This document shows positions 5,954 to 8,594 of a stretch of 16,966 bases of DNA, piece by piece. Position 1 is the stretch's first letter. Each line of letters starts with the position of its first letter. The notes under the pieces were generated by a model, which worked only from the letters and a program-made list of their open reading frames with translations, made no database searches and was not told the DNA's origin. Both the position numbers and the translations under genes were made by a program. Where the stretch lies: NCBI GenBank assembly GCA_964518475.1, contig CAZFGR010000027.1, forward strand, positions 3,720 to 20,685, written 5' to 3'. Source of the stretch: an uncultured Nitrososphaerota archaeon. Lineage in GTDB: Archaea; Asgardarchaeota; Njordarchaeia; Njordarchaeales; Njordarchaeaceae.

Positions 5954-6493
5954 TTACGAATGAATATGTTGCTTGTCTTCCCTTCTAAGTCTTACGAATA
6001 CAGTTCCAGTATCCTCGCTAAAGACTCTTAGGGTCTCAACAAGATTATCGAATAGTCCAAGATTAACCATGTAGCGAAGAACTCTATAGGAACTCCAAAC
6101 CATCGATGCGTCCCAGTAAAGCCTAGCAAACTTGTGAACACAGTAATTATCAGAAAATAGGGGGATATTTTCCACAATAGCTATAGCAAGTAACTTAGCA
6201 AGAACACTATTCAACTGACAAAGTCGCTTATCATCTATGAACGTTCTCCTAACGGTGAAAAGAATCTCGTTATACGACTCATCAAATAAGTCATATATAA
6301 CAAGGACTTTCGATTCTAGCAGAGACCGAAGAAATGATAGTGTTGTCTCCCCCGAGAATAGGTCGTAGAAATCATCTGTTATATAGCCCCTCTCTATAAC
6401 CTCTACGAGTTTAGAACCATGCCTGAATTTGGACCAAGAAACAAGAAACACAGGGTCGATAACGCATGTGATTTTATTCTTCTTCCTCCTCAT
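5954..6493 (-). CDS. PIN-domain protein (VapC-like, DUF3368/COG2405-type), partly degenerate active site
   Basis: 179 aa with N-terminal CVIDPVFLVSW (beta1-Asp), LLAIA...IPLFSDN (late Asp) and VWSSYRVL..M...GL (DUF3368-like tail). Its start overlaps the upstream gene by 20 nt. Confidence 0.7.
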   Translation of the reverse strand: MRRKKNKITCVIDPVFLVSWSKFRHGSKLVEVIERGYITDDFYDLFSGETTLSFLRSLLESKVLVIYDLFDESYNEILFTVRRTFIDDKRLCQLNSVLAKLLAIAIVENIPLFSDNYCVHKFARLYWDASMVWSSYRVLRYMVNLGLFDNLVETLRVFSEDTGTVFVRLRREDKQHIHS

Positions 6494-8594
6494 AGAGAAC
6501 CACCCGAGGAATATTCAGAGAAATCCTCAAATCATCAAACTCATCGAGAGACAGACCACCAAACCTAGCCGCCCCAAGGTCATCCCCCGTGGAAACATAG
6601 TAGCGTATCCCCTCAGCAACACGAAGAGATAAGTGGGATAAAGCGTTCTCCTGAAAAGTATCACTAATAACACGATGCCTCTCATCTTCCATAAAGTCAA
6701 ATAAGGCCCTTAATGCCCTCTTATGCATTTCACGTCGCAATTGAAGTTTCTTGACGCTGAAATAGCCCAATGATAGTAAAATAATGCAGAGAGCACCTAT
6801 AATCCATAAGTAGTATGACAAAACCGGAGGTTTCTGGAAAGATCTCACTGGAGGATGGCTATTCAGATCCAGAGGATTATAACCTTGAAAAACTTCCTCT
6901 CCATCACTAAAACCATCCCCATCAGTATCAGGATTCCATGGATCAGTACCATGCTTATATTCCTCCCAGTTTACGAGATAATCATCATCTACATCAAGCA
7001 TAGCATCCGTAGCGTTTCGCGGATCCAAATTATTAAGGACTTCCCAATAATCTGGTAAACAATCGCTATCAGTATCATTGTTGTGAGGATCAGTCCCATG
7101 GATAAACTCTTGATAATTAGTTAAATTATCATTATCAAGATCCAAGGCTGAGTCATTCTCAAAAACATTAGTGCCATAGACGAATTCCCACCAATCTGGT
7201 AGTCCATCATTATCGGTGTCTGGATTTCGCGGATCAGAACCAATAATACTCTCTGTATAATCAGAAAGAAGATCAAGATCACTATCCACGCAAGCTTGAT
7301 TACCAATATTGTCAGGGGTTCCTCTAAACATGGGCCAGTAAACTCTATTGCCAGAGTGCTTGAAATCGAAGGCATAGACGTAGCCATCATCGCTAGCCAC
7401 AACCAACTCGTTAAGACGATCGCCATCGATATCTGCGATCACGGGAGACGCAGAAATAGAGCTATTGGTTTTAAACCACCACAATAAAGAGCCATTCTTT
7501 CCCGAGAAGATATAAACACAGCCATCCGTACTACCAACAACAACATCTAAGATATTATCTCCATTGAGATCCCCAACCACGGGATTAGAGATGATACTAC
7601 CATTAGTTTTAGCACTCCACAGTAGTGTCCCATCAGAGCTCCTTACAACGTATACACCGCCATCAGTAGCTCCAACAATAGCTTCTAGGATGCTATCGCC
7701 ATCCAAATCAGCAACAATAGGGGAGAGATCATAACCGATCTTACTTGGAAGTTTAGTTATTAGTGAAACGCTATTATTTACAAAATCAAGAAGATACAAG
7801 TTTCCATAATCATCCATTAAAAGAACCTCGAGATTTTCATCATTGTCAATATTAGCTATTATAGGAGATGAACATAAAGCTGAAATATGATAATGTTGGA
7901 TGAGCGATCCATCAGAACCATTCAAAACATGAATTGTGCCCATTGAAGTAGGGATAATGACCTCGTATACTTTATCATTATCAAGATCAGCCACAACAGG
8001 ATACATTACAACATAAGGATCATCACCGATTAACCTTTGCCACAAAATAGAATCATCAGCCCCATCAATCGCTAAAACAAACCCAGTTCTATTCCGAGTT
8101 ATAATGTCGCAAACTCCATCTCCATTCAAATCTACTGTTATTACGCTAGGAAACACCCAACTCCCAAGCCAGTAAACAGATTTGATCGTCCCATTACTGT
8201 GTATTTTTAAAATCTTCCAAACGTATTCGGTTACTGATGCAAAAATAGAGAAGATAGAATCTGTTTTATTACTCCTAGCAATAGCCATAGAGATTACGTA
8301 TCCTCCAATGTAATATGCTGAAAGAACCTTGCCGTTCAGTGCGTTAATAACCACTATATGGGTAGCATTAGGTATGATCAATTCGGGTATAGAGTCTCCA
8401 TTCATATCAAAAAGTAGAGGAGAAAAAGTTGGTGGAGTAATAATATCTGCTCTCCAAGCAAGATTAGAACTTAATAAGTTAGTATGTTCATTACCGAAGA
8501 AGTTATGAGCTGATATAGAGGGTATTGAGAAGAATAACAAAGTAAAACTGAGAAGCAGAATGAGTAGTGTACGATATACAACCATTTGCAACAT
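6474..8594 (-). CDS. Type I membrane protein: signal peptide, FG-GAP/VCBS beta-propeller, TSP3-like Ca-binding repeats, TM helix, antitoxin-like cytoplasmic tail
   Basis: 706 aa. Signal peptide ...LLFFSIPSISA|H; seven PxxxDxxxD repeats; WPMFRG closing strand; six DxDxD..D/N..E repeats; TM VLSYYLWIIGALCIILLSLGYFSV followed by KKLQLRR; tail includes YYVSTGDDLGAARFGGLSLDEFDDLRISLNIP. The true start may be ATG 8585, downstream of an SD-like GAGGA. Confidence 0.88.
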   Translation of the reverse strand: MLQMVVYRTLLILLLSFTLLFFSIPSISAHNFFGNEHTNLLSSNLAWRADIITPPTFSPLLFDMNGDSIPELIIPNATHIVVINALNGKVLSAYYIGGYVISMAIARSNKTDSIFSIFASVTEYVWKILKIHSNGTIKSVYWLGSWVFPSVITVDLNGDGVCDIITRNRTGFVLAIDGADDSILWQRLIGDDPYVVMYPVVADLDNDKVYEVIIPTSMGTIHVLNGSDGSLIQHYHISALCSSPIIANIDNDENLEVLLMDDYGNLYLLDFVNNSVSLITKLPSKIGYDLSPIVADLDGDSILEAIVGATDGGVYVVRSSDGTLLWSAKTNGSIISNPVVGDLNGDNILDVVVGSTDGCVYIFSGKNGSLLWWFKTNSSISASPVIADIDGDRLNELVVASDDGYVYAFDFKHSGNRVYWPMFRGTPDNIGNQACVDSDLDLLSDYTESIIGSDPRNPDTDNDGLPDWWEFVYGTNVFENDSALDLDNDNLTNYQEFIHGTDPHNNDTDSDCLPDYWEVLNNLDPRNATDAMLDVDDDYLVNWEEYKHGTDPWNPDTDGDGFSDGEEVFQGYNPLDLNSHPPVRSFQKPPVLSYYLWIIGALCIILLSLGYFSVKKLQLRREMHKRALRALFDFMEDERHRVISDTFQENALSHLSLRVAEGIRYYVSTGDDLGAARFGGLSLDEFDDLRISLNIPRVVLYEEEEE
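6850..7286 (-). repeat. Six TSP3-like (DxDxDG) Ca-binding protein repeats
   Basis: DSDLDLLSDYTE, DTDNDGLPDWWE, DLDNDNLTNYQE, DTDSDCLPDYWE, DVDDDYLVNWEE and DTDGDGFSDGEE, most followed by a G(T/S)DP-like motif. Confidence 0.85.
7320..8425 (-). repeat. FG-GAP/VCBS-type propeller repeats (7 clear blades plus 1 degenerate)
   Basis: PLLFDMNGDSIPELII, VITVDLNGDGVCDII, PVVADLDNDKVYEVII, PIIANIDNDENLEVLL, PIVADLDGDSILEAIV, PVVGDLNGDNILDVVV and PVIADIDGDRLNELVV; degenerate blade MAIARSNKTDSIFSIF. Confidence 0.85.

Follow-up and report, generated by a model that had tools for sequence, protein, structure and literature searches.

In a 16,966-nucleotide stretch of DNA from an uncultured Njordarchaeales archaeon (the window), a single open reading frame encodes a 706-residue surface protein whose predicted cytoplasmic tail is a divergent relative of small antitoxins, and this gene overlaps the start of a second gene whose 179-residue product belongs to a divergent family of PIN-like proteins. 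The same arrangement recurs in at least nine diverged lineages, and we consider it probable that it represents a toxin-antitoxin pair that has been domesticated and tethered at the membrane. All of the features lie on the reverse strand and are as follows, with the basis of each assignment in parentheses.

6474..8594, (-) strand: fusion gene for a predicted type I membrane protein of 706 aa, stop codon included (open reading frame list and translation)
8508..8594, (-) strand: predicted signal peptide, residues 1-29 (hydrophobic segment 1-30 by Kyte-Doolittle scan)
7305..8477, (-) strand: FG-GAP / PQQ-like beta-propeller ectodomain, residues ~40-430 (Pfam)
6840..7289, (-) strand: six TSP3-type Ca-binding repeats, residues 436-585 (Pfam and direct reading)
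6753..6824, (-) strand: predicted single transmembrane helix, residues 591-614 (Kyte-Doolittle; hydrophobic span 589-617)
6477..6743, (-) strand: predicted cytoplasmic tail, residues 618-706, 89 aa (AF2, hhalign, fold comparison, dN/dS)
6474..6493, (-) strand: gene overlap of 20 nt (YEEEEE-stop in one frame, MRRKKNK in the other)
5954..6493, (-) strand: partner gene, 179 aa, divergent COG2405/DUF3368-type PIN-like (hhalign, PDB 2lcq, Atlas features)

This layout bears out a sequence-only reading of the window, which had described the 706-aa frame with its signal peptide, FG-GAP propeller, six Ca-binding repeats, one transmembrane helix and tail of about 90 residues, as well as the 20-nt overlap with a PIN-like gene; the tail motif that it quoted and Met623 (6726-6728) are likewise present. 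The propeller is matched by the Pfam models Beta-prop_ACSF4 (2.8e-25), FG-GAP_3 (1.7e-15) and PQQ_2 (5.3e-10), and TSP3_bac matches in three stretches (2.4e-18), within which six DxDxD...E repeats can be read directly. Only two hydrophobic segments (1-30 and 589-617) are seen in the Kyte-Doolittle scan of the whole protein, and reading of the sequence places the likely signal-peptide cleavage after SISA. Because lysine and arginine follow the transmembrane helix on its C-terminal side, the predicted topology puts the tail in the cytoplasm; all 13 N-x-S/T sequons fall within residues 76-527, in the predicted extracellular part. The locus sits inside a variable surface-glycan gene cluster.

At least nine lineages, diverged from one another and drawn from separate metagenome assemblies (L004/L005, L006, L008, L010/L108, L011/L012, L053, L055, L110/L111 and L113), carry the frame that joins ectodomain, transmembrane helix and tail and overlaps a PIN-like gene; the overlaps in the relatives are 8-23 nt. 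Because a continuous frame and the tail motif are present in the independent assembly of each lineage, the fusion is not an assembly error, and the order of antitoxin followed by PIN, with the antitoxin-like domain borne on an ectodomain as the sequence-only reading proposed, is conserved. No stop codon separates the transmembrane helix from the tail in any fused lineage, and the frame is kept despite in-frame insertions and deletions, while identity among the lineages falls to 35-37% in the partner and to 27% in the tail. Ratios of dN/dS are 0.21-0.24 for the tail, 0.19 for the TSP3 region and 0.14-0.35 for the PIN-like gene, indicating purifying selection. Among the Logan contigs of the likely source run, the sole near-identical one that extends over position 6571 lacks one base of the run of four C residues at 6572-6575, at a point 46 nt from the contig end and in a comparison of contigs rather than raw reads; if real, this deletion would shift the frame of the final ~32 codons of the tail. 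The window's own reading frame yields the tail motif that is conserved in all of the relatives.

The fused form is rare. Among 400 species genomes of the phylum it is present in the window's genome only, none is found in six genomes of the same genus (66-90% complete), and a scan of species genomes with alignment A1 recovered no relative. Scanning of metagenomes with the same alignment gave four further fused loci, together with two matches (L114 and L115) attributable to chance. There is also a hint of mosaicism in the window, where the PIN-like gene is nearest to that of L004, and the ectodomain and tail are nearest to those of L010.

Judged by profile alignment and by fold, the tail appears to be a divergent HTH domain of the PaREP6/UPF0175 (COG2886) kind. 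When aligned with hhalign, the tails match free small proteins at 99.4% (E 5e-21), and the fused tails match a UPF0175 reference of 27 proteins at 84% (E 8e-6), a value that rises to 93% (E 3e-7) for tails and free forms together and to 94% (E 1e-7) for free forms alone; the alignment runs over the HTH motif, and cross controls gave 0.2-1.6%. The AF2 model of the tail (pLDDT 82.7) consists of a long helix, a three-helix HTH and a C-terminal strand, IPRVVLYE. Its nearest folds in the Atlas are PaREP6 and UPF0175 clusters, the closest models being a cluster named PaREP6 and two unnamed Thermoproteota clusters (TM 0.58-0.73, by fold comparison only); a Foldseek search of the PDB gave nothing at E<=0.001, with the weak rows being mostly HTH domains. 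No Pfam or NCBIfam model is reached by the tail, there is no match to UPF0175 (PF03683, gathering score 27.9 bits) at E<=1, and a six-frame search of the genome with the UPF0175 model returned nothing at this locus at E<=10. Even the free relatives score 12.9-19 bits against that model (E 0.09-0.001), below its gathering score. The earlier description of the tail as a UPF0175-type antitoxin is upheld by profile alignment and by fold, but it misses the thresholds of the Pfam and NCBIfam models.

At the family level, profile alignment and fold comparison identify the partner as a COG2405/DUF3368-type PIN, though a divergent one. A family of 20 partner sequences aligns by hhalign with 14 open reading frames encoded downstream of UPF0175 genes at 97.2% (E 4e-11, 145 columns), profile A4 matches the PDB PIN structure 2lcq (E 8e-5), and the language-model features of the partner lie nearest to DUF3368 PIN clusters in the Atlas (score 0.94). 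The nine partners of the fused clade, taken alone, match DUF3368-type PINs at 1.6% only, so the assignment relies on the intermediate free relatives. One of these, P0022, has a precomputed DUF3368 match that was not reproduced in our own scan. The partner itself reaches no Pfam or NCBIfam model, with no DUF3368 (PF11848) match at the locus at E<=10, and searches of the PDB with profiles from the shallow alignments A1 and A2 gave matches at chance level only. An AF2 model of the partner alone, from an 8-row alignment, is too poor for a fold search (pLDDT 44).

Two of the four conserved PIN active-site acids are gone across the fused clade and are retained by its non-fused relatives, which is new here. 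Position 45 is leucine, valine or threonine in all nine aligned fused partners, whereas 10 of 11 non-fused proteins have glutamate; position 98 is leucine, methionine or glycine in the same nine and an acid (E or D) in all 11 non-fused ones. The window's partner has L45 and L98, and that of L113, which is unaligned and was read by eye, shows the same two replacements as a tenth case. The canonical acids D13 and D115 are retained in the fused partners, as are D161 (in nine of nine) and an E or D at E108 (in eight of nine). COG2405 PINs have been scored as having between two and five conserved acids and an uncertain active site (Matelska et al. 2017, PMC5499597), and residual or altered catalysis may persist. 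The loss nevertheless makes a classical toxin role doubtful, so that of the proposed DUF3368/COG2405 PIN toxin it is the PIN relationship that stands, on family-level alignment, 2lcq and the language-model features, with the Pfam models missed and 'toxin' in question.

Modeling of the tail together with the partner supports direct binding between them, as the sequence-only reading had suggested. The predicted complex has an ipSAE of 0.87, and the best of three controls 0.00; among solved complexes 58 of 80 attained that ipSAE mark, as did 2 of 110 mismatched pairs, counts that are only rough because our own alignments were used. The runs have at least 84% of contacts in common, and the partner, in complex, is modeled with a pLDDT of at least 86. 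In the predicted interface, which includes the juxtamembrane helix (tail residues 11-25), the tail lies over the PIN fold around D13, at positions 45-51 and at positions 115-118. Searches of the PDB returned no solved complex of like kind.

Relatives of the two genes also occur in free form. In other Asgard genomes (L022, L057, L058 and L059) an open reading frame of 74-93 aa overlaps the start of a PIN-like gene, and a scan of the 400 phylum genomes shows the tail domain in 22 other genomes as small frames of 56-114 aa, the sole other long frame being a 225-aa soluble fusion. The free relatives are often arranged as triads, with a small gene on either side of the PIN-like gene. A word-index search for tail-like free proteins of 46-147 aa found none, and the free homologues were reached via the partner gene. 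In the window and its fused relatives the tail domain keeps its slot upstream of the PIN-like gene, but as the C-terminus of a 706-aa membrane protein.

Recurrence of the fusion with different ectodomains, which had been put forward as strong support for such a system, is not what we see: throughout the phylum genomes and metagenome loci every fused form has the FG-GAP/TSP3 type. The fused partners form one clade (support 100/100), whose stem is long, at 1.5 changes per site. One clade and one ectodomain type point to a single fusion event, and with a single origin the association between fusion and acid loss counts once. Paralogous surface proteins in related genomes stop 15-20 aa past the transmembrane helix, which fits an in-frame fusion at that point, and the ectodomain family is strongly expanded, a single genome yielding as many as 77 matches.

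For the domesticated, membrane-tethered pair that we consider probable, these comparisons suggest an ancestor made of two free genes, the first for a small PaREP6/UPF0175-like HTH protein and the second for a COG2405/DUF3368-like PIN. In one Njordarchaeales-like lineage the small gene would have been joined, with the frame kept, to the 3' end of a surface-protein gene of an abundant type, with signal peptide, FG-GAP propeller, TSP3 Ca repeats and a C-terminal transmembrane anchor. In the type I membrane protein that would result, the cytoplasmic tail of 89 aa is predicted to bind the PIN-like protein from the overlapping gene by means of the tail's HTH helices and C-terminal beta-strand, and so to hold that protein at the inner face of the membrane. 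Because two acids have been replaced and the partner is still under purifying selection, a growth-arresting nuclease is less likely, and the partner would more plausibly act as an adaptor, bind RNA or serve as an effector of altered kind. The pair could then couple an event at the surface, such as adhesion, Ca2+ or shedding, to a cytoplasmic partner. Surface sensing, or release brought about by a ligand, Ca2+ or proteolysis, as the sequence-only reading put forward, would be purely hypothetical. A more elaborate version, a Notch-like or anti-sigma-like receptor in which an event at the integrin-like ectodomain frees the domesticated PIN-like protein from the antitoxin-derived tail, possibly by presenilin-type cleavage, strikes us as rather improbable.

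Along the lines of the sequence-only reading, the same structure could also be a working toxin-antitoxin or abortive-infection switch, in which the tail neutralizes a PIN toxin; once the surface protein is damaged, shed or proteolysed, for example upon virus attack, the tail would be destroyed and the toxin set free. The antitoxin-then-toxin order and the overlap are retained, the modeled tail covers D13 and the segments 45-51 and 115-118, D13, D115 and D161 are conserved, and the locus lies among variable surface-glycan genes; the genome also has a gene for a protease of the presenilin family (38.8 bits), for which type I transmembrane proteins might in principle be substrates. We nonetheless view a switch of this kind as unlikely, since the two acids that non-fused relatives keep are hydrophobic or small in nine of nine aligned fused partners, PADLOC finds no match, no protease gene is linked to the locus and the genome has no stand-alone copy of the antitoxin to buffer the system. 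A neutral accident would require only that a selfish toxin-antitoxin cassette landed behind a surface-protein gene and the stop codon was lost, with the fusion persisting and the ectodomain irrelevant. The single origin and ectodomain type agree with this, as do the rarity of the fused form (one of 400 phylum genomes and none of the six same-genus genomes) and the many landing sites offered by the expanded ectodomain family. A dead selfish module should decay, however, and instead the junction frame is kept in at least nine lineages despite indels and tail identity down to 27%, purifying selection acts on the tail and on the acid-losing partner, and the long stem fits a functional change, so that the chance of a mere accident seems small.

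It is very unlikely that translation from an internal start yields the tail as a free small antitoxin, whether alongside the fusion or in place of it, in which case the long frame would overstate the fusion. A product begun at Met623 would have 84 aa, a usual size for an antitoxin, and Met635 is invariant across the six closest tails, but Met623 is missing from four of the seven other aligned fused tails, the two more distant ones have K or L in place of Met635, the frame is open from the transmembrane helix through the tail in every lineage, and the predicted interface draws on the juxtamembrane helix. There is likewise a superficial likeness to polymorphic toxins, in that a large, repeat-rich surface protein bears a C-terminal module that might be an exchangeable cassette, with a small downstream gene as its immunity partner, and the differing nearest relatives of the window's PIN-like gene (L004) and of its ectodomain and tail (L010) hint at mosaicism. 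This reading we regard as scarcely credible: the positive-inside charges place the tail in the cytoplasm, the tail belongs to one family under purifying selection in every member and so is not polymorphic, and an antitoxin-like tail with a toxin-like downstream gene is the reverse of the polymorphic toxin arrangement.

Toxin-antitoxin pairs are usually viewed as small and soluble modules, selfish or concerned with stress or defence. In this clade the antitoxin-like half has stayed within a large surface protein while the lineages diversified, and the PIN-like partner has been conserved despite the loss of two of the four expected acids; a domesticated origin would make this a clear case in which the high-affinity contact already built into a toxin-antitoxin pair was put to use at the membrane. 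A regulated tether would give an archaeon a new way to link its surface with the cytoplasm. That link would belong to the closest relatives of eukaryotes, and the receptors of eukaryotes have the same type I layout.

A search of the literature on membrane-anchored or transmembrane antitoxins, and on Asgard archaea with FG-GAP proteins, turned up nothing relevant and, among the papers covered, no described system of this architecture, in agreement with what the sequence-only reading had stated. The closest counterparts are the pairs of COG2886 (UPF0175, PF03683)/paREP6 proteins with COG2405 (DUF3368, PF11848) PINs, which are predicted type II toxin-antitoxin systems (Makarova et al. 2009, PMC2701414; Matelska et al. 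2017, PMC5499597). As in those mainly archaeal pairs, an HTH protein is followed by a PIN in overlapping genes, the tail aligns to the UPF0175 HTH and the partner family to open reading frames downstream of UPF0175; unlike them, the HTH is the tail of a 706-aa surface protein rather than a free protein of 70-100 aa, both parts fall below the Pfam models and the fused partner is without two of the four PIN acids.

In working principle only, the proposed tether resembles membrane-spanning anti-sigma factors such as RseA and RsgI and regulated intramembrane proteolysis, where a single-pass protein with an extracellular domain sequesters a partner from the same operon through its cytoplasmic domain. 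There is no sequence relation, the orientation here is N-out and C-in as in Notch-type substrates, and the partner is PIN-like rather than a sigma factor, with the single transmembrane helix and the binding tail being predicted here. The ectodomain matches the same models as FG-GAP and TSP3 surface proteins, among them integrin-alpha-like propellers and bacterial adhesion proteins of the CglD/MtsD type, and the archaeal order to which the window belongs has a very large number of FG-GAP/TSP3 paralogues; what sets the fused proteins apart from these ordinary paralogues is the antitoxin-like tail and the coupled gene, which are found in this clade only.

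The two genes at the centre of this locus encode a 706-aa surface protein with an antitoxin-like tail (P0001) and a 179-aa PIN-like partner (P0002), and their reading frames overlap by 20 nt. Re-derivation from ORFs, domains and hydropathy reproduced every coordinate of the sequence-only reading.

Features of the fusion gene and its partner
5954..6493, minus strand: P0002 ORF, 179 aa (ORF list and translation)
6474..8594, minus strand: P0001 ORF, 706 aa (ORF list and translation)
P0001 residues ~40-430: FG-GAP/PQQ-type beta-propellers (Pfam)
P0001 residues ~440-585: bacterial TSP3 repeats (Pfam)

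Six DxDxD...E repeats are evident in P0001 by direct sequence reading, and its NCBIfam matches are all partial and to adhesion-type proteins. A hydropathy scan identifies two hydrophobic segments only, an N-terminal signal peptide and residues 589-617; because Lys and Arg come after the latter and each of the 13 N-glycosylation sequons comes before it, P0001 is predicted to be a type I membrane protein whose cytoplasmic tail is 89 aa long (residues 618-706).

Relatives of P0002 are few (17 representatives at E<=0.001 among 1.84 billion proteins), and every contig with a close or moderately close one is arranged alike: the partner's start is overlapped by 8-23 nt by an upstream ORF that encodes TSP3 repeats, one transmembrane (TM) helix and the same tail. 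The fused ORF is full length in relatives L004/L005 (733 aa) and L053 (689 aa), and the arrangement is also present in L006, L008, L010, L011/L012 and L055; a metagenome scan adds L108, L110, L111 and a further lineage, L113 (699 aa). The L053 and L055 partners are 35-37% identical to P0002. We looked in these relatives for a stop codon between the TM helix and the tail and found none in any fused lineage, so the fusion is neither an error nor a one-off; linker indels among them are in frame. The tail has a dN/dS of 0.21-0.24 between the window and its closest relatives, compared with 0.19 in the TSP3 region and 0.14-0.35 in the partner gene. The C4 run at window 6572-6575 is C3 in the only near-identical contig over position 6571 among the Logan contigs of the likely source run, 46 nt from the end of that contig. 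If real, this 1-base deletion would shift the frame of the last ~32 tail codons and truncate the HTH; we take it for an assembly artefact or a low-frequency variant, since the window's frame yields the motif conserved in all relatives. Divergence across the locus is mosaic: the PIN-like gene of the window has its nearest relative in L004 (dN 0.08), but the window's TSP3 region and tail are nearest to L010 (dN 0.09-0.11, versus 0.36 and 0.20 for L004), a pattern suggestive of recombination within the locus.

No Pfam, NCBIfam or PADLOC model is matched by the tail or by P0002. Their proposed assignment to UPF0175-type antitoxins and DUF3368-type PINs thus fails as formal Pfam membership, and it stands as distant homology by profile comparison, predicted folds and a solved PIN structure. 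Through more distant P0002 homologues we found four loci (L022, from a genome of the same order, and the metagenomic contigs L057, L058 and L059) where a free 74-93-aa ORF precedes and overlaps the start of the partner gene. These small proteins share the tail motif, …Y/F-I-x-T/K-G-D…A-A-K-L-A-G-L-x-x-D/E-E-F-x-x-L-R…I-P. Free relatives usually form triads of a small HTH protein, a PIN-like protein and a second, paralogous small HTH protein (L022, L057, L058, G081:C55 and G012:C132), with both small genes overlapping the PIN-like gene; lineages with the fused ORF have no second small HTH copy downstream of the partner. With hhalign, fused tails match the free small proteins at 99.4% (E 5e-21) and 27 bona fide UPF0175 proteins at 84% (E 8e-6), the latter comparison rising to 93-94% (E 3e-7 to 1e-7) when the free forms are added to the tails or used by themselves; cross controls give 0.2-1.6%. 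Two free forms have sub-threshold Pfam UPF0175 matches on the motif. AF2 models the tail (pLDDT 82.7) as a long helix and a three-helix bundle, and the ESM Atlas models nearest to it are small proteins of Thermoproteota, among them a cluster with the name PaREP6, followed by UPF0175 clusters and then Fis-type HTH domains; the same relationship, between COG2886 and paREP6, was described by Makarova et al. 2009 (PMC2701414). In a genome of the same genus (L047, G004:C99) a 224-aa soluble protein has a bona fide UPF0175 domain at its C-terminal end, and its N-terminal ~170 aa resemble, by eye, an antitoxin domain of the SocA/Panacea type; if so, the HTH module would have entered a fusion here as well.

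For the partner, the 20-member family matches 14 ORFs just downstream of UPF0175 genes at 97.2% (hhalign, E 4e-11, 145 columns); the fused-clade subfamily on its own scores 1.6% and is, judged by this comparison, too diverged for recognition. Language-model features of P0002 are nearest to DUF3368 PIN clusters, and a deeper family profile matches the solved PIN protein 2lcq (E 8e-5). UPF0175 proteins are found exclusively beside COG2405/DUF3368 PINs (Matelska et al. 2017, PMC5499597). Alignment to DUF3368-type PINs locates the four PIN-acid columns, compared here between fused-clade partners and non-fused relatives, 4 of the 11 latter (L022, L057, L058, L059) having a verified free-standing gene context.

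PIN-acid columns in 11 non-fused and 9 fused-clade sequences (P0002 numbering)
Column 13: non-fused D 11/11; fused-clade D 8/9, E 1/9
Column 45: non-fused E 10/11; fused-clade L/V/T, acidic 0/9
Column 98: non-fused E/D 11/11; fused-clade L/M/G, acidic 0/9
Column 115: non-fused E 11/11; fused-clade D 9/9

The L113 partner, read by eye, has the same two replacements. All fused partners group in a single clade (100/100) with a long stem branch, and purifying selection still acts on them. Together with the loss of two acids, this pattern is consistent with a functional change when the fusion arose, and a role of the partner as a classical toxin is improbable. COG2405 PINs vary in their acids (Matelska et al. 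2017, PMC5499597) and E108 and D161 are conserved in the fused clade, so these partners could still be catalytic.

A complex model of the tail with its partner, built from a deep tail alignment and a deeper partner-family alignment, reaches an ipSAE of 0.87 against 0.00 for the best of three controls and supports binding of the partner by the tail, as the sequence-only reading had supposed; 58 of 80 solved complexes and 2 of 110 mismatched pairs reach this mark, counts that apply here only approximately because the model used our own alignments. Runs have at least 84% of contacts in common, with partner pLDDT of at least 86. No complex of this family with a solved structure turned up in PDB profile searches, which makes it improbable that the model reproduces a known structure. 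In the model the last tail strand (IPRVVLYE) pairs with partner residues 162-169 and the HTH helices rest on residues 14-22, 45-51, 90-98 and 115-125, the face that is the PIN active-site face of relatives.

We consider it probable that P0001 and P0002 are a domesticated toxin-antitoxin pair, in which the antitoxin-derived tail would serve as a fixed docking site holding a PIN-derived protein beneath an adhesin-like protein of the cell surface. A live toxin held in a surface sensor, as originally proposed, would suit the way in which the tail is predicted to cover the PIN face, but the loss of two PIN acids from the partner makes this rather unlikely. That the fusion is a functionless accident is more doubtful again, given a reading frame conserved across lineages and purifying selection on a partner without two expected catalytic acids. 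Synthesis of the tail as a separate product from an internal start is very improbable: of the seven other fused tails in the alignment four lack Met623, and the two more distant tails lack Met635, and therefore no internal start is conserved. A polymorphic-toxin-like cassette is barely credible.

Genomes of this order contain a greatly enlarged family of FG-GAP/TSP3 surface proteins (as many as 77 matches in one genome), and its ordinary paralogues stop 15-20 residues past the TM helix; in the simplest history a PaREP6-like/PIN cassette came to lie behind such a gene, whose stop codon was then lost. Among order-level genomes G001-G013, several of 1.8-2.7 Mb have 22-77 family matches. NCBI names the source of one close homologue as Candidatus Njordarchaeales archaeon. 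The tail domain occurs in 23 of 400 species genomes of the phylum, the window's included, and in the others it lies in small frames save for one 225-aa soluble fusion; six genomes of the same genus (66-90% complete) yielded no fused form. Recurrence of the tail with other ectodomains, which the sequence-only reading had sought, was not found in the 400 genomes or the metagenome loci, and from these surveys the fused form appears rare, of single origin and with a single ectodomain type.

Here, as in L004/L005, the locus is part of a cluster that contains genes for GT4 glycosyltransferases, for an epimerase and for large membrane proteins. Four GT4 genes and the epimerase adjoin three large ORFs without a Pfam match, and the G+C content, 0.29-0.34 on the left flank, climbs to 0.40-0.48 between 4 and 10 kb of the window, giving the island a mosaic look.

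Large ORFs and repeat element
1-1314, minus strand: large ORF without Pfam match
11675-13276, plus strand: large ORF without Pfam match
15054-16961, minus strand: large ORF without Pfam match
8673-9715: repeat element, 1,043 bp, with 15-bp inverted termini CTTTGTTTYAAATTT, within the ORF-free stretch 8641-10428

The repeat element is upstream of the fusion gene, 79 bp from the start of that gene, and has at least 20 further copies or fragments in the same genome (69-78% identical, many at contig ends); same-genus genomes have only weak pieces, in two of them. Its longest frame is at most 67 aa in the window and up to 148 aa in other copies, it has no Rfam or tRNA match, and it probably represents a decayed or non-autonomous transposable element family. 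Between it and the GT4 gene at 10429 are ~700 bp (9716-10428) with no ORF of 47 aa or more, of which ~10188-10378 matches C9:63127-63321 of the same genome (75%).

Our literature search found neither a membrane-anchored or transmembrane antitoxin nor this architecture described. The window's genome has a presenilin-family match at C1:150849-151100, unlinked to the locus. On the metagenomic contig L057 a presenilin-family gene (1006-1896) lies two genes upstream of the free small-HTH/PIN-like pair, probably by coincidence. By analogy with known signalling systems, the docking could conceivably take a Notch-like or anti-sigma-like form, with regulated release of the PIN-like protein.
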